DNA of 64,000 bases from Candidatus Nomurabacteria bacterium. GTDB taxonomy: Bacteria > Patescibacteriota > WWE3 > UBA101185 > UBA10185. The translations under genes and the position numbers were made by a program. The stretch spans positions 295,601 to 359,600 of the forward strand of contig JACKGU010000001.1 in NCBI GenBank assembly GCA_020631855.1, in the 5' to 3' direction. The notes under the pieces were generated by a model. It saw only the letters and a list, made by a program, of their open reading frames with translations, made no database searches and was not told where the DNA came from. Every line of letters starts with the position of its first letter. Position 1 is the stretch's first letter. Below, in pieces: positions 16,197-46,230 of the stretch.

Positions 16197-18755
16197 TTAA
16201 GCGTCTTTGCCGTGGCATTTCTTGTATTTTTTACCGCTCCCGCAAGGACAAGGATCATTTCTACCAATCTTATCTACAGATTTAGTAGTTGGGGCTTTTG
16301 TACTTTTATTTTTTAACTTTGCTTCGTCTTCGACACCGCTATTTAGCTCTCCCTGCTCATAAACGGCCGACTGCAACTCACTCTTTAGTTTGCTTTCTAA
16401 TCTATTTTCTACGCTACGAACTTGCTCAGGAGCTCTTTTTATTTCTTTTAACCTCAGCAGTCTCTCGCTAATACCCGAGTATATACTATCAACCAGCATA
16501 TCAAATCTGGTGTGACCTTCTCGTTTATATTCAACAATAGGATCTTTTTGCGCGTAACCTCTGAGCCCAATTCCATCTCGTAAGTTGTCCATATCTACCA
16601 AATGCTCCATCCATAGCATATCAACAACTTCCACACTCAGCTGTGCAACAACCTGGGCCCATATTTCTTCACCTAGCTCTTTGCTATAATAATCCCAACG
16701 CTCCGAAACCTCAGAAGAAAGTTTTTCCAAAAACCAATCTTTGTGTGTCAAATCTTTGGACCCAATTTCAAGAATTCTACGCCTCAGTTTATACACTACT
16801 TCCCTATGCACATTCATAACATCGTCCATTTCAACGACCTGTTTTCGTCTGTCGAAGTTAAAGTTTTCAACTTTCTTTTGCGCGTTTTCGATAGCCTTAG
16901 ACACTATACCGGCTTCTAAAGGAACCGAATCATCTATGCCAAAGCGGTTCATCAACCTTTCTACCTGGGCGCCTCCGAAAACGCGCATCAGGTCATCCTG
17001 CAACGAAACATAAAACCTCGAAGAGCCGGGGTCGCCCTGTCGACCGGAGCGACCTCTCAACTGATTATCAATTCTTCTAGACTCATGTCTTTCGGTTCCA
17101 ATAACATGCAGGCCTCCAAGCTCCCTGATTTCAGCTTGTTCTTCTTCAGTCGACGGATCTCCACCTAATATAATGTCCACACCTCGGCCCGCCATATTAG
17201 TTGAAATAGTTACAGCACCTTTTTTACCCGCTTGAGCAACAATTAATGCCTCACGTTCGTGATTCTTTGCGTTTAATATCTCGTGTGGAATTTTTCTTCG
17301 TTGTAAGAAATTATGTAGAAGTTCGCTTTTTTCAACCGTTGTTGTACCAACAAGAACCGGCTGACCTTTTTCATGTAGTTTTGCTATTTCATCGGCCACG
17401 GCCTTAAATTTTCCTGCCTCTGTTTTGTACACCACATCGTTATAGTCAATTCTAGCTACAGGCATGTGGGTAGGAATTACAACTACTTCAAGTTTATAGA
17501 TTTTAAACAACTCCTCGGCCTCAGTCACCGCAGTACCGGTCATGCCGGCCAGCTTTGAATACATTCTAAAATAATTTTGATAAGAAATCTCAGCTACTGT
17601 TTTGCTTTCTTGCTGTATTTGAACATTTTCTTTAGCTTCAATTGCCTGATGCAATCCTTGAGAGAATCTATTCGAGGGCAAAAGTCTGCCGGTAAATTGA
17701 TCTACAATTACAACCTGGCCGTCTTTCACAACATAATCTCTGTCTTTCTCATACAAGGCGTGTGCGCTCAAAGACTGCTCTATCAAATGAACCATCTCGA
17801 AATCTTGTTCATAAAGATTATCTATTTTTAGTAAATTCTCAACTCTCCTTATACCAAAATCTGTTAGCGAGGCGTTTCTAAATTTTTCTTCTACTTCATA
17901 GTCAGTATTTTTTTCTAGCTGATCTATAATTCTGTTCGCCTGCATGTAACGTTCAGTGGGTTGAGCTGAAGAAGTGGAAATTATTAAAGGCGTTCTAGCT
18001 ACATCAATTAAAATTGAATCTACTTCATCAACAATAGCAAAATTATGGCTCCCCCAATCACCGTTTGGATTGGTCTGTACGGTTTGATCAAGTGTAAGTA
18101 CCATGTTATCTCTTAAGTAATCGAAGCCGAATTCGTGGTTAGTACCATAAGTTATATCTGCACGGTAGGCATCAGCCTTGCTGATCTCGCGCAGATGCTT
18201 TGTATACTCATCTTGAAACTCGGAACTAACAAACTCAGGATCGAAAATAAACGCTCGTTGCTGCATAATTACACCCGTCTTCAGTCCAAGATAATCGTAC
18301 ACTCCGCCCATCCATCCGGCCCCGTGTTTTGAAAGATAATCGTTAGGCGTTACGAGATGAGCACCCTTACCTGTTAGTGCATTAAGATACAAGGGTAAAA
18401 CGGCCGTAAGAGTCTTACCTTCGCCGGTCTTCTGTTCCGCTACCTTGCCTTGGTGCAAAGCAATGCCGGCCAACATTTGCACATCATGAATTCTGATTGT
18501 CTTATTCTCATCGCTCAAAACCCTTCTTGCCGCCTCTCTTACTAATGCGAAAGCTTCCGGCAAAATTGAATCCATATACCTTGAGGCTTCCTTGTCATCC
18601 ATTTTGGATAGAGCCTCTTTCCAAAAAGCCGTCTTTTGTAAAAAAGCAGGTCGGTCTAACCTCTCGAATTCAGGTTCAAAAGAACTGATCTTACTCAGTA
18701 TGGGGGCTTGCTTGGCAAGCAATTTTGAATTTGTATCGAAAAATTTTTTAAACAT
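16197..18755 (-). CDS. secA: Preprotein translocase ATPase SecA
   Basis: 852 aa, DEAD-like motor motifs, C-terminal zinc motif [14 protein letters not shown]. Confidence 0.98.
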
Positions 18756-18763
18756 GCTGAATG

Positions 18764-18772
18764 ATTATAGCA
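18764..18772 (-). promoter_or_regulatory. Extended -10 promoter (TGCTATAAT) 8 nt from the secA ATG
   Basis: Minus strand reads TGCTATAAT-CATTCAGC-ATG. No SD. Confidence 0.5.
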
Positions 18773-18783
18773 CTATAGAAAAG

Positions 18784-18812
18784 TTGAAGTGTAAATTCTT
18801 TATTTATATAAT
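18784..18812 (+). promoter_or_regulatory. Promoter TTGAAG-17-TATAAT, 6 nt from the ATG at 18819
   Basis: Hexamers and spacing read directly from the sequence. No SD between the -10 box and the ATG. Confidence 0.5.
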
Positions 18813-18818
18813 TTTCTC

Positions 18819-19322
18819 ATGGGATATATACTCGACCTTGATACCGTTGTTTATATCTCACAAGACCTTAGAAGAAGAAAAAAGAAAATAATATACACCC
18901 ACGGAAGCTTCGATCTATTTCATTCCGGACACTCATACCTATTTAATAAAGCAAAAAAACTGGGCGACGTATTAATAGTAGGCGTAGATTCTGACGAAAA
19001 AGTAAGGAAATTTAAAGGGGAGAGAAGACCGGTAAATCAGCACTCGCTTAGAGCTGAGATGGTAAACAACCATAAAGATGTTGATATAGTCTTTTCAATA
19101 GAAGGGTTAGCAGAAAACGAGGAAGATTACTATGTTGGACTATATAAAAAGCTATCTCCGCACATCGTCGTTGTAGGAAACTCTTTTGGGTTTCGGAACA
19201 ATTTCAGAAAGAAACTTGCAAACACTGAGTTCGTTTTAATAGATCTTTTACCCGAACACCAGATCTCTACCACCGACATAATTCAAAAAGTATTAGATAC
19301 GCACGTAGAAAAGTCCGAGTAG
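18819..19322 (+). CDS. Cytidylyltransferase-family nucleotidyltransferase (TagD / RfaE domain II-like)
   Basis: THGSFDLFHSGH (HxGH motif), LIVGVDSDE. Confidence 0.8.
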   Translation: MGYILDLDTVVYISQDLRRRKKKIIYTHGSFDLFHSGHSYLFNKAKKLGDVLIVGVDSDEKVRKFKGERRPVNQHSLRAEMVNNHKDVDIVFSIEGLAENEEDYYVGLYKKLSPHIVVVGNSFGFRNNFRKKLANTEFVLIDLLPEHQISTTDIIQKVLDTHVEKSE

Positions 19323-20114
19323 AACCAAAACAATAAGAATCCTATAGACTATAAAGGTTGTTAAAGAATTGTTACGCAAAAATTTCATTAAAAAGCTTAT
19401 TGCTAAAATTCCGGTTATAAAGCTCGATAGAAAACCAACAACTACAAGCAGGCCGCCCAATTGCTGAAGACTTTCAAAAGAGGAATAGATTTTATACAAA
19501 GCGGCGCCGAGTATAGTGGGAATAGCCATAATAAAAGAGAATCTTGCCGCTTCTTTTCTGCTTAAACCAACGATCATGCCTCCGGAGATTGTGGATCCTG
19601 ATCTGGAGAAACCTGGCAACAAGGCGAGCATCTCAAAAAGTCCTATTGCGATTGATTTTTTTAAGGTAAGTTCTGACTTAGTTTCGATACGAGCAAATCT
19701 TTTTTCAGCCACGTACATTAAAATCGTGCCTAAAAGCAAAAAGAGCTCGACCCACAAAGCACTTCTAAAAACTTGTTCGAGAGTAGCATCTAATACAATA
19801 CCGGCGATACCTGCAGGAATAACTGCAACCAGAGCAAATAAGCCGTACTTTCCAGATCGGGAATATTCTTGCAACTTGTTTCTTTTTTGAGCAATGTTGA
19901 AAAATAAAGCCTTGGCAATATCCAAAAGATCGCGAAAAAAATACACTATAAGAGCAACCGAGGTTCCCACATGCAGGACCAAATCAAATGCCAAAGACTG
20001 CTCATTCCAGCGTAGAAGATAGGGTAAAAGAATGAGATGTCCTGAGGACGAAATAGGTAGAAACTCGCTAAGACCCTGAATAGTTCCTAAAACCAGTGCT
20101 TGAAAAATTGTCAT
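19293..20114 (-). CDS. uppP: Undecaprenyl-diphosphate phosphatase
   Basis: QGLSEFLPISSSGHLIL and a polytopic membrane profile. The 3' end overlaps the convergent gene by 30 bp. Confidence 0.93.
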   Translation of the reverse strand: MTIFQALVLGTIQGLSEFLPISSSGHLILLPYLLRWNEQSLAFDLVLHVGTSVALIVYFFRDLLDIAKALFFNIAQKRNKLQEYSRSGKYGLFALVAVIPAGIAGIVLDATLEQVFRSALWVELFLLLGTILMYVAEKRFARIETKSELTLKKSIAIGLFEMLALLPGFSRSGSTISGGMIVGLSRKEAARFSFIMAIPTILGAALYKIYSSFESLQQLGGLLVVVGFLSSFITGILAISFLMKFLRNNSLTTFIVYRILIVLVLLGLFYVRI

Positions 20115-20116
20115 AA

Positions 20117-20827
20117 CTAAGCTCGGCCAAAAATTAAAATATTATCGGCATTGCTTTTACCGGGAATGATTTCAGTCTCAACGTTTGTAAAAAAATCTTT
20201 TACATTATCCAAAAACATATGGGCCTCATCCTGGTGGTCATCGGTTTTATAGTATCTGTGAAACACAACTAAGCCCCCAGGGTGAGTCATGCTTTTTAAA
20301 AGTGAAAAAAAGTTTCCGGAATTCCCTAAATCTGGGTATACATCACCAATAAAAATATCAACAACAACAGCACTAAAAGATTGTTTACGCAGTCCGTACT
20401 TTTCAGGCGATACAACCACCGCACAAGCATCGGCAACTATAATCGAGTGGTTTGGAATCTCGTCCGCACGGAAATGTGTCCTTGCTATATCAACTACAAC
20501 CGGGTCAATTTCCACACTAACAATATGTACACCGGGATACGCTTTTGCAAGGAGATGCTGGAAAGTCGCGCCTCCCAGACCCATTACAAGAACACTCTGC
20601 AGTTCGGGCTCTTGCTCTTTAATGACCTGTACCATATTTCCCCACACCAATGCCTCAGCAGATTTGGAATCATGCGCTACAGAGTGAATCACACCATTAT
20701 TAATAAGTTTTTTTGTAGTTCCAACTTTTACGACCTTCAAAGATTTACTGAAATCCGATGATGTAGATAATATAACCTCAGGCTCCTTGATATTACTAAA
20801 TACGGAATACATATTTTGATAATACAA
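20117..20827 (-). CDS. Spermidine synthase-like class I SAM-dependent transferase
   Basis: VLVMGLGGATF...VEIDPVVVDIAR motif. The start is uncertain (TTG at 20827 or ATG at 20812). Confidence 0.65.
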   Translation of the reverse strand: MYYQNMYSVFSNIKEPEVILSTSSDFSKSLKVVKVGTTKKLINNGVIHSVAHDSKSAEALVWGNMVQVIKEQEPELQSVLVMGLGGATFQHLLAKAYPGVHIVSVEIDPVVVDIARTHFRADEIPNHSIIVADACAVVVSPEKYGLRKQSFSAVVVDIFIGDVYPDLGNSGNFFSLLKSMTHPGGLVVFHRYYKTDDHQDEAHMFLDNVKDFFTNVETEIIPGKSNADNILIFGRA

Positions 20828-20862
20828 TAAAATTTAATCTAAACATATACTGTACTCCATGC

Positions 20863-22164
20863 TCACTGAGGTCTGGGCTTATCTCTCAAAGAAATTGGTC
20901 TAATAACCTCCAAGCCATTCATGTAGGGCTTTAAAACTTCCGGTATTAAAACAGAGCCGTCTGCTTGCTGGTAATTTTCCAATATAGCGATAATTGTTCT
21001 TGACGTTGCAACTGCAGTTCCGTTTAACATGTGAACATACTCAGTGCCGCCTGTGTCTAATTTATACTTAATATTTAAATTTCTCGCTTGGTAATCTGTA
21101 CAATTTGAAGTGGATGTCACTTCCCCATAGTCTTTTCTACCAGGCATCCAAGCCTCTATATCATATTTTCTTGCTGCCATCGCACCTAAGTCTCCGGTGC
21201 ATTGCTTTAGAACCCTATAAGAAATGCCCAGGCCTTGGTAAATTGATTCTTCCATCTCCAGCAGATAATCATGCATCTGCATTGATTCTTCAGGCTTACA
21301 ATAAATAAACATTTCCACTTTTGTAAATTGGTGAACTCTATATAGCCCTTTTGAATACTTTCCATAAGCGCCGGCCTCTTTTCTAAAACAGTGAGAATAG
21401 CCAACATATTTTAAGGGTAAATTTTCCAGAAGTAGAACCTCGTCAGCATGCTTACCGGCAAGAGTTACTTCAGCAGTTGCAATTAAACCCAAATCCTCAC
21501 CTTCGATTGTATAAGTTTGGGCCTCATCTCCTCTAGGGGCATAGCCTGTTCCAAGATAATAACGGGACTTTGCTAAATCAGGCGTCAAGGTCGGAGTAAA
21601 ACCAGCTTTACTAAGCTTTTCAAACGCGTATTGCACAAGCGCAAGCTCCATTAAGACACCGGCACCATATAGAAAATAAAATTGAGAACCTGAAACTTTG
21701 GCACCGTCTTCAAAACTTATAATTCCGAGGGATTCTCCCAATTCAACGTGATCTTTTGGTTCAAAATCAAGCTTTGGAATGTCACCCACATGCTTTAATA
21801 TTTCATTTCCTGATTCATCTCTTCCTACAGGAACGTCTGCCGAAGGTATATTTGGAACAGCCATAACCATAGCGTCCAATTCGTTTTTTAAAACCAACAG
21901 TTTATCTTCCAACCCCTTTAGTTCCTCTTTCGTGTCACTAGCTTGTGTGATTAATTTTTCACGAGCATCGCCAGATACTTTTGAAATGTCTTGAGAGAGC
22001 TCGTTGCGAATTGCTCTAAGCTCTTCTACTTTCTTAAGTAAATTTCTATACTCAACGTCAACTTGTAGAAGCCTATCTATGTCCACAACGCCATTCATGT
22101 TTTTGTCTTCTATTGCTTTTTTTACAACCTCAGGGTTTTCTCTTATTATTTTTATGTCCAACAT
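20863..22164 (-). CDS. serS: Seryl-tRNA synthetase
   Basis: 433 aa, N-terminal coiled-coil arm, class II motifs (..FRKEAGAYG.., ..GTAVATSRT..). Confidence 0.97.
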   Translation of the reverse strand: MLDIKIIRENPEVVKKAIEDKNMNGVVDIDRLLQVDVEYRNLLKKVEELRAIRNELSQDISKVSGDAREKLITQASDTKEELKGLEDKLLVLKNELDAMVMAVPNIPSADVPVGRDESGNEILKHVGDIPKLDFEPKDHVELGESLGIISFEDGAKVSGSQFYFLYGAGVLMELALVQYAFEKLSKAGFTPTLTPDLAKSRYYLGTGYAPRGDEAQTYTIEGEDLGLIATAEVTLAGKHADEVLLLENLPLKYVGYSHCFRKEAGAYGKYSKGLYRVHQFTKVEMFIYCKPEESMQMHDYLLEMEESIYQGLGISYRVLKQCTGDLGAMAARKYDIEAWMPGRKDYGEVTSTSNCTDYQARNLNIKYKLDTGGTEYVHMLNGTAVATSRTIIAILENYQQADGSVLIPEVLKPYMNGLEVIRPISLRDKPRPQ

Positions 22165-22204
22165 AATTTATTCCTAAAATATAAATAACTACTAACCGGG
22201 GATT

Positions 22205-22405
22205 GAGAATAAAAAACCCCCTGGTTTTACCCAAGAGGCTCAATACTAATGTATTGAAGGTGCCAGCCTTCTTCATACTTATTAACAGCTATAACGGGCA
22301 TTCCCGACTTGGCATTTCCTCCAAGCAGCTCCGTGATTGGAAAATTCACATCAAAGCTTTTTTAGTTTTTTTATACAAACAAACTCAATTATTTGTTAGT
22401 CTGTG
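22205..22405 (-). promoter_or_regulatory. T-box riboswitch leader of serS
   Basis: Antiterminator AGGC-[UGGCACC bulge]-UCAAUAC-AUUA-GUAUUGA-GCCU is mutually exclusive with the terminator. F-box-like CCGUUA at 22292-22297. Confidence 0.7.
22208..22240 (-). terminator. T-box expression-platform terminator
   Basis: AGCCUCUUGG-GUAAAA-CCAGGGGGUU overlapping a U6 tract, about 40 nt upstream of the serS ATG. Confidence 0.7.
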
Positions 22406-22411
22406 TTCGTA

Positions 22412-22440
22412 AATATAACAATTAAGTGGTCGAGATTCAA
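22412..22440 (-). promoter_or_regulatory. Promoter TTGAAT-17-(TGT)TATATT driving the T-box leader
   Basis: Hexamers, 17-nt spacer and extended TGn read on the minus strand. Confidence 0.55.
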
Positions 22441-22578: not shown

Positions 22579-24696
22579 CTATTTGGCTTGATTTTTGTAA
22601 ACATTGATCAAAAACTCTACATGTGCATCAAAACCCTCACCTAGTTGTTCAACACCATATAAAATCTCTTCACGATCAATTTTAGCCGCAAAAGCCCTAT
22701 CTTTAAATTTCTTCTTTACTGACGATACTTTCATGCCGTCGTAACCTTCGGGGCGCATCAATGCGTACGCATATAGAAATCCGGCCATCTCATCCACGGC
22801 AATAAGCGCAGAGGCCAGCCTGGTCTGAGGTTTTACATTGGTTCTCATGTGAGCATGAGCTGCAACTGCATGAATTAAACTCTCAGGATAGTTTCTCTCT
22901 TTAAACCATTCTAATGATTTTGCAGGATGCTCATCAGGGTATTCAAAATAATCAAGGTCATGTAATAAACCTGTGATATACCAGAGTTCGCGATCTTCAT
23001 TGAATTTTTCAGCATATGCTTCAAGACCGCGGGCGATCATAAGAGCATGCTGTATTTGATAGCTGTCCTTGACATGGTCCCGTAAAAGCGCCTCCGCCTC
23101 CTTTCTAGAAGGTAGAAATCCCTCGGAGCTAATGTATAAACTCTCGTTTAAATCAGTTTTACTTAGAGAGTCTTCTACTAGAGGATCGCTCTTGGATAAC
23201 CCGTAGATTTCAGCGTTTGCATCGTCGTAAACATGCTTCAATTGAGGAAATGGAACTCCTTCCCTTGCTGTAACATCCTCTAAAAACCAAAAAACTCTTT
23301 CTGAATGACCATAACCAAATGTCGGCGGCATGCCGTATTCAAGCATTTCAACATAATCAATATCGAGCCACTGCGCTTCCGAATCACCGGAATCTCTCAT
23401 TGACTGCTGTTCCGAAAATCGTTCAAACTGATCCAAGCCACTATTTATTTCCGACCAGCCATTTCCGAGTTCGGAGCCGGCAATAATTGGCTGGAAACGC
23501 TCTGTTATTCTGGTATCTTTTGGGTTCGCCTTTGCTAACGGCGACAAATACTTAGGGTGATTAATTAAAAAGGCAGGCCCCCCAATAGTTCTACGTATTT
23601 CTTTCCAAAGAGCGTCCACTAATCGTGGCCGATTCTCTGTCTCTGCCTTTATTCCGGCTTTTTCGCAAGCTAGCTTTAAATCTTCAATACTTGAATTGTG
23701 TACGTCTACTCCATATCTCTGCTTCATGATGTCAGAGAAATCAATCCTTTCCCACTCTTTTTTGGAGAAATCAACTTCAAAACCCCTAATACTGAACTTC
23801 TTCTTATCTCCGTAAAGAGATTCAATCACGTAATTAAAAAGGTCTTGAATAAAATCCATACCTGATTGCCAATCAGCGTAAGCCCAATAAACCTCCATCG
23901 CCATGTGTTCGGGAAGATGCTCGTCGGATAAACCCTCATTTCTGAATCTTGGGCCTATTTCATAAACTTTTTCATAGCCCCCTCCAATTAATCTTTTCAA
24001 AAAAAGTTCATGGGAAATTCTAAGATAAAGAGTCTCATCGATGGAGTCCATATGAGTCACAAAAGGATTCGCGTCTGCCCCTCCGGGCACTGCTTCTAAA
24101 ACAGGAATATTAATCTCATAGAAACCCCTTTTTTCAAAAAACTCGCGATGAGCAGCCCAAAACTTAGAACGTCTAATGTATCTATCACGAACATCATCAT
24201 TTATCCTTGTATCTAGATATCTTTTACGCATTCTGGTCTCTCTGTCTTTAAGCCCATCGTGCTTGTCGGGCAATGGTCTAAGGGATTTGGCCAATATTCT
24301 TATGCTGTGGGGCTCTATAGACTGCTCGCCGCTATTTGTTATTACTAAAGCTCCCTTGCACTCTATATAATCTCCAATATCTAATAAATCCAGCTCAGAG
24401 TAGGATATTTCACTATTTTTGTGTTCAACTTTTTCAAGATTTTGTTCCTTAATATATACCTGAATTGTGCCTGAAAAATCTTTTATATCAAAAAATGTCA
24501 GCTTTCCATGTCTTCTCAACGACATGATCCAACCGGCTAAAATTACTTCCTTTCCCCCAAGTTTGCCAAAGCTGCTTATAACTTCAGAGATTAGGTGGGT
24601 CCTAAAAGACGTTGCCGGATAAGGATCAACGCCTAGATCTTGAAGATTTTTAAGTTTTTGTAATCTTACATCCCTTAGCTCTTTTAAAGTGGCCAT
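22579..24696 (-). CDS. lysS: Lysyl-tRNA synthetase (class II) fused to a C-terminal HD-domain phosphohydrolase
   Basis: N-terminal OB and class II core, then a ~180-aa HD module (QHAL...LLHDLDY...AAHAH). The start is taken at MATLKEL (24696), behind AGGAAA. Confidence 0.9.
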   Translation of the reverse strand: MATLKELRDVRLQKLKNLQDLGVDPYPATSFRTHLISEVISSFGKLGGKEVILAGWIMSLRRHGKLTFFDIKDFSGTIQVYIKEQNLEKVEHKNSEISYSELDLLDIGDYIECKGALVITNSGEQSIEPHSIRILAKSLRPLPDKHDGLKDRETRMRKRYLDTRINDDVRDRYIRRSKFWAAHREFFEKRGFYEINIPVLEAVPGGADANPFVTHMDSIDETLYLRISHELFLKRLIGGGYEKVYEIGPRFRNEGLSDEHLPEHMAMEVYWAYADWQSGMDFIQDLFNYVIESLYGDKKKFSIRGFEVDFSKKEWERIDFSDIMKQRYGVDVHNSSIEDLKLACEKAGIKAETENRPRLVDALWKEIRRTIGGPAFLINHPKYLSPLAKANPKDTRITERFQPIIAGSELGNGWSEINSGLDQFERFSEQQSMRDSGDSEAQWLDIDYVEMLEYGMPPTFGYGHSERVFWFLEDVTAREGVPFPQLKHVYDDANAEIYGLSKSDPLVEDSLSKTDLNESLYISSEGFLPSRKEAEALLRDHVKDSYQIQHALMIARGLEAYAEKFNEDRELWYITGLLHDLDYFEYPDEHPAKSLEWFKERNYPESLIHAVAAHAHMRTNVKPQTRLASALIAVDEMAGFLYAYALMRPEGYDGMKVSSVKKKFKDRAFAAKIDREEILYGVEQLGEGFDAHVEFLINVYKNQAK

Positions 24697-24730
24697 TATT
24701 TTATTTCCTAAACTGAATACGTACTTCGCA

Positions 24731-24739
24731 ATTATAACA
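24731..24739 (-). promoter_or_regulatory. Extended -10 promoter (TGTTATAAT) of lysS, 34-nt leader with an SD
   Basis: Read on the minus strand. AGGAAA lies about 10 nt before the ATG. Confidence 0.45.
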
Positions 24740-24907
24740 GAAAAGGGGCAGGTACAAAGCACCCAAAAATAGTGCTAAAACATTTTTACGGCCTAAATTT
24801 TTTTATTTGCTTTTATATTGCTAACCCGAACAAAATTCTTTTAGTACATGGCCTAACCTGCTTATACTAGCCACAAACAACAAAGAACTGTAAAATATCT
24901 GCAGAGT

Positions 24908-45531: not shown

Positions 45532-46191
45532 ATGCAGATAGAAAACTACGACAATAATCAAATAGCCGAGCTTTTGCGTGATGCAAAAAGCGTTGGCATA
45601 ATAGCCTCAAGACTAAATCAACCGGATACTTTCTGTGCCGCTTCTGGACTCTACTTGATGCTCAAAAATACGTTCGAAGACAAAGAAATTAAACTTATTT
45701 ACAAAGGCGACATCCCCACAGAATGCAGCAATTTAATAAATAGCGAAGACGTTCACGCCAATGTCGATGAGAGAGACTTGGTAGTGACTGTGAACTACAA
45801 AGGGACAAGCGCATCAAAGGTACAATATAGCACTGAAGACGGAGTATTTCAGTTCAGGCTCGGCCCTGTGCCGAAATATTTTGATTTGGGCAACATTCAA
45901 AGCGTACTTTCAGGATTCGACTTCGATGTTGTGGTTACCATAGGTATTCCTGACCTCGAGGTAACAGGGAGTCTATACAGTAGCCTGAAGCACGAACTTA
46001 GCAGCGCAAAAATTGTAAACATAGACAATACAGGACTAAATAAAAGGTTTGGGAGCGTCAATGTAATTGATACGCAAGCAAGCTCACTTAGTACACTGGT
46101 CTTTAATTTAGCGGCAGAATGGAAACTCAAACCAACTGCAAAATCTGCAAAAATGCTGTTAGTAGGGGTTTCATCTACAAGCATAGACTAG
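45532..46191 (+). CDS. DHH-phosphoesterase-like protein with degenerate catalytic motifs
   Basis: Layout resembles an NrnA N-domain (GIIAS..QPDTFCAASGLYL; VVVTIGIPD; VNIDNTG where DHH is expected). The ORF-track start is at 45508. Confidence 0.4.
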   Translation: MQIENYDNNQIAELLRDAKSVGIIASRLNQPDTFCAASGLYLMLKNTFEDKEIKLIYKGDIPTECSNLINSEDVHANVDERDLVVTVNYKGTSASKVQYSTEDGVFQFRLGPVPKYFDLGNIQSVLSGFDFDVVVTIGIPDLEVTGSLYSSLKHELSSAKIVNIDNTGLNKRFGSVNVIDTQASSLSTLVFNLAAEWKLKPTAKSAKMLLVGVSSTSID

Positions 46192-46220
46192 TTGAAATAA
46201 GTATTTAATATTGTTACAAT
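46192..46220 (+). promoter_or_regulatory. rpsO promoter TTGAAA-17-(TGT)TACAAT, 10 nt from the ATG
   Basis: Hexamers and spacing read directly. No SD. Confidence 0.55.
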
Positions 46221-46230
46221 GTTTTAGCAT

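Follow-up and report, generated by a model that had tools for sequence, protein, structure and literature searches.

T-box leaders that control transcription are described as relying on an extended decoding module. A review of this class states that the platform binding the tRNA elbow is essential in transcriptional T-boxes, which "generally require" a long Stem I (PMC7583486, section 6.2), and that Stem III is "indispensable" for binding of the tRNA 3' end (PMC7583486, sections 5.2 and 6.2). According to the same source, T-boxes normally have a purine after the specifier, and the aminoacyl group is sensed sterically above all by the G·U wobble at the base of helix A2 (PMC7583486). Most translational T-boxes carry an intermediate or "ultrashort" Stem I (PMC7583486, section 6.2). 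Short or "ultrashort" forms of this stem are reported for the actinobacterial ileS T-boxes of Mycobacterium smegmatis, M. tuberculosis and Nocardia farcinica, the "class II" of the database TBDB (PMC7583486, PMC7778990; Sherwood et al. 2015 as cited therein). TBDB restricted the search with its short-Stem-I model to Actinobacteria and to class I matches (PMC7778990), and the literature that we searched contained no paper connecting T-boxes to the candidate phyla radiation or to the Patescibacteria. Here, we describe the leader of the seryl-tRNA synthetase gene serS in a stretch of 64,000 nucleotides (nt) from Candidatus Nomurabacteria bacterium (Patescibacteriota, WWE3; GenBank assembly GCA_020631855.1, contig JACKGU010000001.1, positions 295,601 to 359,600), referred to in the following as the window. 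Judged from its sequence, this leader is likely a minimal T-box that attenuates transcription of serS in response to tRNA-Ser.

The stop codon of lysS starts at 22579 and serS starts at 22164, leaving on the minus strand the 414-nt gap in which a first-pass annotation of this DNA had proposed a T-box leader. This proposal is supported by the T-box family of Rfam (RF00230), which aligns end to end with 22233-22363 of the minus strand (37.5 bits, E = 8.1e-7 in a 551-nt search), and by conservation across nine leaders. The element sits 46 nt 5' of serS on the same strand, which is the leader position of an aminoacyl-tRNA synthetase gene, and the protein encoded by serS (SerRS) is identical to NCBI MCA9301747.1, serine--tRNA ligase. 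Read in the direction of transcription, the element and its target consist of the following parts.

22328..22357, minus strand: ultrashort Stem I, closed by G22357-C22328 and C22356-G22329, with K-turn, a helix of 5 base pairs (bp) and a 9-nt apical loop (RF00230 alignment and covariation).
22338..22341, minus strand: specifier UCC (Ser) at 22341-22339 with the 3' purine A22338 (UCCA at the same loop position in nine of nine leaders).
22307..22326, minus strand: truncated Stem II of 20 nt in total, 5-bp helix CUUGG/CCAAG, G·U closing pair, 8-nt purine-rich loop AGGAAAUG (covariation).
22292..22306, minus strand: Stem IIA hairpin CGGG-AAUG-CCCG (22306-22295) with the F-box CCGUUA (22297-22292) (Rfam alignment).
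22270..22291, minus strand: 22-nt linker with AAGUA at 22280-22276 (the "RAG" purines), then GAAGA, without Stem III, running into A1 (Rfam alignment).
22236..22269, minus strand: antiterminator with helix A1, T-box bulge and helix A2 (Rfam alignment).
22211..22241, minus strand: intrinsic terminator, 11-pair stem (22241-22231 with 22224-22214), loop GUAAAA, U6 at 22216-22211 (pattern scan).
22172..22175, minus strand: Shine-Dalgarno sequence AGGA of serS, 36 nt past the U-run and in neither alternative helix.
20863..22164, minus strand: serS, the regulated gene (Pfam Seryl_tRNA_N and tRNA-synt_2b).

Further evidence for this assignment comes from related leaders, a family that the first-pass annotation had missed together with the truncation of Stem II and the absence of Stem III. 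Relatives of the window's SerRS at 60-78% identity belong to the Patescibacteria, including Woese-, Levy- and Daviesbacteria. Look-ups of the closer ones yielded three leaders of the same architecture directly 5' of serS (L162, L161 and L163), and a covariance model, R1, was built from these and the window. R1 found five leaders outside its build set (L172 with 77 bits, L169 and L171 with 58 each, L168 with 57 and L170 with 38; E = 3e-7 to 3e-16), in all of which the element is located upstream of the gene or genes preceding serS in the operon of related Patescibacteria. Four relatives (67-69% identity) in which another gene abuts serS might have been taken as leaderless, but the covariance model places the T-box upstream of that gene. 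The reduced T-box is present in nine out of ten close SerRS loci with DNA, and none of 160 more distant serS loci has the element, other Patescibacteria lineages included. In SerRS-based scans, the best relatives were 63% identical among genomes (one per species) and 57% identical among JGI metagenomes, none with a reduced T-box. The canonical serS T-boxes of Chloroflexi that are compared below came from these scans. Within the window, R1 revealed no other reduced T-box; a second match at 46149-46224 of the plus strand (15.3 bits, E = 0.05-0.5, GC content 0.28) is weak and was taken as chance.

The nine leaders (window, L161, L162, L163, L168, L169, L170, L171 and L172) were aligned under guidance of the model. 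Standard pairs fill 95.1% of the pair cells in this alignment, versus 30-41% if the partners are slid by one to three columns, and 22 out of 27 pairs are changed on both sides, values that none of 500 shuffles reach. Every pair of the Stem I helix, Stem II and A2 covaries. An alignment fitted to a model favours the structure of that model; the slid controls and the independent matches argue against model fitting as the explanation of the covariation.

Within the decoding part, the suspicion of a reduced Stem I proved to be right, as the stem consists only of the K-turn and a 5-bp helix with its 9-nt loop. The K-turn is built from the bulge UUU (22355-22353) and the pairs G22352·A22330 and A22351·G22331, and it aligns to the GA motif of RF00230 (22357-22351 with 22331-22328). 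Its tandem G·A pairs are canonical in four of the nine leaders and variant in the others, with an asymmetric internal loop found in all nine. The helix UGUGA/UCACG (22350-22346 with 22336-22332) is paired to 100% across the leaders, with all five pairs changed on both sides, and carries the apical loop AUUUUCCAA (22345-22337). This loop comprises only 7-9 nt in eight of the leaders; L168 has an extra 4-bp hairpin. The specifier, left unassigned by the first-pass annotation with the suggestion to look for a serine codon in Stem I, was found in the apical loop as UCC followed by A. CCA (Pro), likewise conserved as a part of UCCA, was rejected as specifier: the next base is variable, with a pyrimidine in some leaders, the variable base of the T-box bulge is C, and the gene is serS. 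In bacterial tRNAs, a bulge C fits G73 of tRNA-Ser and not A73 of tRNA-Pro.

Stem II is kept by compensation throughout, with all five pairs changed on both sides (e.g., UCGAG/CUCGA in L161 and GUCGG/CCGAC in L168). Its loop is purine-rich and 8-9 nt long across the leaders (AGGAAAUG or GGUAAnAAA); in the Rfam alignment it falls on the S-turn columns (GAA...AGUA), and the distal part of the stem is deleted there. The adjoining Stem IIA helix is paired to 95%, with two of its four pairs changed on both sides, and the F-box CCGUUA, already recognized in the first pass, is made up of the 3' strand of this 4-bp hairpin plus UUA. In the following linker, AAG(U/A)A is kept in all nine leaders, the upstream purines AAG of the window being 22280-22278. 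A Stem III hairpin is found at this place only in L168, and L161 carries a 65-nt insert there.

The 3' domain agrees in all parts with the helices drawn in the first-pass annotation. A1 is formed by AGGC (22269-22266) and GCCU (22239-22236), the T-box bulge comprises 8 nt (UGGCACC plus one U, 22265-22258), and A2 is the hairpin UCAAUAC-AUUA-GUAUUGA (22257-22240; 22257-22251 with 22246-22240), of which seven of seven pairs covary. The bulge reads UGGCACC in six leaders and UGGCAAC in three, so that UGGC and the variable base C, which had been taken to match the G73 discriminator, are present in nine out of nine. The terminator that was claimed to share GCCU with A1 is present as well: the scan gives 11 pairs between 22241 and 22214 followed by U6, including five G-C and several G-U pairs, and the site ranks top among terminator-like sites in the 10-30 kb part of the window (20 kb). 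Both structures share 22240-22236 (22241-22236 counting the outermost G-U). Computed stabilities amount to -9.7 kcal/mol for the antiterminator and -16.5 kcal/mol for the terminator alone, and folding the 3' domain to its energy minimum (-24.1, z = -3.2) yields the terminator form. A hairpin with a run of six to seven U directly follows the antiterminator in eight of the nine leaders. In the Microgenomates-type members, the terminator overlaps A1 by only ~3 nt (AAC).

A further feature concerns the F-box region of three Microgenomates-type members (L172 1243-1372, L169 399-522 and L170 102-240). It reads CCGUAAC or CGUAAC, almost identical to the 3' strand of A1 (CC-G-UAAC), and could, by its sequence, pair instead with the 5' strand of A1.

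Computation shows the sequence elements and the codon, how they are conserved and covary, and that the two alternative helices exclude each other and differ in stability. Based on the leader position, the K-turn, the matching specifier, the F-box hairpin, the T-box bulge and the competing terminator, the element is placed in the T-box family, and we are largely confident that serS is preceded by a true, serine-specific T-box. Binding of tRNA, sensing of its charging and termination itself are deduced by analogy from the established T-box mechanism, which would translate to this leader as follows. Transcription would probably start from a promoter near 22412-22440, and the apical loop of the nascent ultrashort Stem I would show UCC and the following A to the anticodon of tRNA-Ser(GGA). 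The K-turn at the base of Stem I, the short Stem II with its purine-rich loop and the Stem IIA/F-box hairpin would form the remainder of the decoding module. With uncharged tRNA, the 3' GCCA would pair with UGGC of the bulge, thereby stabilizing the weak antiterminator (A1 and A2) and allowing read-through into serS. With charged or absent tRNA, the more stable terminator would take over five to six bases of the antiterminator 3' strand, and transcription would stop at the U-run.

A number of findings speak against this interpretation. The distal Stem I platform (AG bulge and distal loop), on which the tRNA elbow docks, is missing in the window element, and so is Stem III, with no hairpin at its place in seven of the nine leaders. 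At the base of A2, the G·U wobble is replaced by an unpaired U and a U-A pair. Complementarity for the IIB pseudoknot (AAUG with UGUU 22287-22284) exists in six to seven of the nine leaders, and 27% of shuffles reach the summed score; a covariation of IIB seen by eye failed the shuffle test, the segments being short and AU-rich, and is not claimed. The leader L163 (84-185), despite carrying the reduced T-box with a stable antiterminator, lacks an overlapping terminator, and no U-run accompanies its next hairpin. No tRNA-Ser gene was found in the window and 16 loci that could be inspected for the anticodon GGA or for G73, and the whole 64-kb window contains neither a tRNA gene nor an Rfam family at curated thresholds. 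Furthermore, the Rfam scan that had been suggested as a check was successful only in part. The end-to-end match lies far under the RF00230 gathering score of 93 bits, it is lost to the filters in a permissive E-value search of the whole window, and no Rfam match at gathering score was obtained from the window or 14 related loci.

The low Rfam score is explained by the architecture, since Stem I is confined to the K-turn and one short helix and Stem III is missing. Well aligned to RF00230 are the K-turn, the base of Stem II, the Stem IIA hairpin with the F-box and the T-box/antiterminator region. In the same alignment, 75 Stem I consensus positions are reduced to 8 nt, Stem II loses its distal columns and Stem III all of its columns. 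Measured from Stem I to A1, the element covers ~125-131 nt versus 219 consensus positions of RF00230. Because tests for three canonical modules found none of them and the score stays below the curated threshold, the element has to be addressed as a variant rather than as a plain T-box member; on sequence grounds, this minimal T-box variant is conserved and had not been annotated before.

The missing modules leave room for other explanations. The RNA alone may be too weak or too slow as a switch and may depend on a helper, either a protein (e.g., an L7Ae-type K-turn binder) or a slow or paused RNA polymerase. The loss of the elbow platform and Stem III and the shortened Stem II would agree with such a dependence, the ileS T-box of M. 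tuberculosis no longer bound tRNA once its Stem II was shortened (PMC11297988), and K-turn-binding proteins may assist T-boxes according to the review (PMC7583486). However, neither a candidate protein nor a conserved neighbour gene pointing to one was found at the related loci, and the explanation draws on absences only; we consider it quite improbable.

Still less probable, in our assessment, is that the leader is the decayed relic of a T-box that senses no tRNA, in which the hairpin and U-run would act as a constitutive or leaky attenuator or be inert, and the promoter alone would set the expression of serS. Genomes of the candidate phyla radiation are reduced, the elbow platform, Stem III and the G·U sensor pair are modules reported as essential (PMC7583486), and the low Rfam score would equally be expected of a relic. 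A decaying element would not be expected to look as the nine leaders do, whose SerRS proteins are 66-78% identical to that of the window: they keep UCCA, UGGC and all helices by means of compensatory changes, which is evidence of purifying selection on both structure and codon, and the loss of modules is consistent among them, not random. The least probable explanation, a translational or dual T-box controlling ribosome access instead of or besides transcription as in actinobacterial ileS, can refer to the fact that T-boxes with an apical-loop Stem I have so far been described as translational (PMC7583486, section 6.2; PMC7778990) and that L163 has no U-run terminator, but the window shows no Shine-Dalgarno-sequestering platform, its helix competing with the antiterminator is directly followed by U6, the Shine-Dalgarno sequence at 22175-22172 is part of neither helix, being located another 36 nt downstream, and eight of the nine leaders carry a hairpin with a U6-7 run.

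A minimal transcription attenuator responding to tRNA-Ser therefore stays the preferred reading. Going one step further, the family may constitute a distinct minimal T-box class that is frequent within a single branch of the candidate phyla radiation (WWE3/Microgenomates-like) and decides on read-through co-transcriptionally, using only an apical codon loop, a Stem II of 20 nt and a discriminator free of Stem III; we see the chances for and against this as evenly balanced. If true, natural transcriptional T-boxes would need neither contact to the tRNA elbow nor Stem III. With ~125 nt, the element would also be the smallest working tRNA-sensing switch that we are aware of, and at ~125-130 nt it would be a compact natural scaffold on which to study structure and to engineer tRNA-responsive switches. 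It would extend the known range of T-boxes to the candidate phyla radiation, with its reduced genomes and few recognized regulators. At the curated Rfam threshold none of these elements is detected, and consequently they are probably unannotated in public genomes. A conserved, terminator-bearing family lacking both modules would be a direct test of the two generalizations made by the review on a long Stem I and on Stem III (PMC7583486).

Upstream of the element, two further features complete the leader.

22412..22440, minus strand: candidate sigma-70-type promoter TTGAAT, 17-nt spacer, TG-n-TATATT (pattern scan, 9 of 12 matches plus TG).
22358..22411, minus strand: AU-rich 5' leader of ~50 nt from promoter to Stem I, without conserved structure (largely outside the Rfam and R1 matches, which begin at 22363).

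The promoter sequence had been named in the first-pass annotation and was recovered by the scan with TTGAAT at 22440-22435, TG at 22420-22419 and TATATT at 22417-22412. As promoter-like sites are no commoner than in shuffles (three found, 3.0 expected), this promoter is graded as plausible and not as demonstrated. It is positioned 55 nt upstream of Stem I, whereas four relatives (L161, L162, L168 and L170) have a TTGACA promoter with a 17-nt spacer only ~12-25 nt upstream of it, the -10 elements being TTTAAT/TTAAAT (L161, L162) or of the pattern TAxxxT (L168, L170). The AU-rich segment is missing from L161 and L162, where the promoter adjoins Stem I. A closer candidate in the window, TAACAA-17-TATAAA with the -10 element at 22375-22370, has the spacing of the relatives but only two of six matches in its -35 element, so that the TTGAAT promoter was kept as the better candidate.

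Downstream of serS, and on its strand, lie genes for a spermine-synthase-like methyltransferase, uppP (BacA) and secA (16197-22164, minus strand), the first two junctions being short, and the gene order downstream of serS is the same in L161. The influence of the attenuator may extend past serS to these downstream genes. In three of the relatives, the first gene after the T-box belongs to the histidine-phosphatase family and is followed by serS (L168 535-1176, L171 1625-2326 and L172 1398-2048). The best NCBIfam match of this gene is the phosphoserine phosphatase PspA with 133-159 bits (cut-off 350), and a PspA-like gene and serS together behind a T-box may, going by these matches, form a small serine regulon.

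The gene on the other side of the gap, lysS (22579-24762, minus strand), encodes a product with a C-terminal HD domain (Pfam PF01966, residues 570-651). This fusion of lysyl-tRNA synthetase and HD domain was also called in L161, and an HD-domain protein is encoded by a separate gene near serS or lysS in L001, L167, L172 and the neighbourhood of P0016. At ~24.8 kb, the orientation of the large open reading frames changes from almost all minus on the left to mostly plus on the right, and the GC skew goes from about -0.15 to slightly positive. Strand switch and skew would fit a replication origin region.

In comparison with known systems, the element shares with the canonical transcriptional T-boxes (RF00230; e.g., tyrS and glyQS of Bacillus subtilis) its place as leader of a synthetase gene, the K-turn at the base of Stem I, the specifier with a following purine, the Stem IIA hairpin with the F-box CCGUUA, the UGGNACC bulge between A1 and A2 and the competing intrinsic terminator. 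It differs from them in a Stem I without the S-turn-bearing internal specifier loop, AG bulge and distal loop, and furthermore in the 5-bp Stem II, the lack of Stem III, the bulge of 8 nt and an A2 closed by U-A and not by G·U. Canonical serS leaders of Chloroflexi (L066 and L139) reach 76-90 bits with Rfam, compared with 37.5 for the window, and have a long Stem I with UCC-A in an internal loop, Stem III and UGGCACC, thus the same codon and bulge. A serS leader on a high-GC (0.67) metagenome contig (L145 78-223; Rfam 36.6 bits) has 87 Stem I positions reduced to 13 nt, with Stem III present and no clear U-run, and may be, as far as its alignment tells, another short-Stem-I serine T-box outside the Actinobacteria and Patescibacteria.

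With the actinobacterial ileS T-boxes, the window element has in common the specifier in an apical loop directly above the K-turn, the codon at about positions 17-19 from the stem base and the absence of an elbow platform. The actinobacterial leaders are isoleucine-specific, act on translation via a Shine-Dalgarno sequestrator and have a long Stem II with internal S-turn as well as Stem III. In contrast, the window family is serine-specific, found in Patescibacteria and provided with a hairpin and U-run terminator, its Stem II being truncated and its Stem III mostly missing. By its sequence features, the family joins a decoding loop of the actinobacterial type to a terminator of the Firmicute type, with Stem II trimmed and Stem III dropped.

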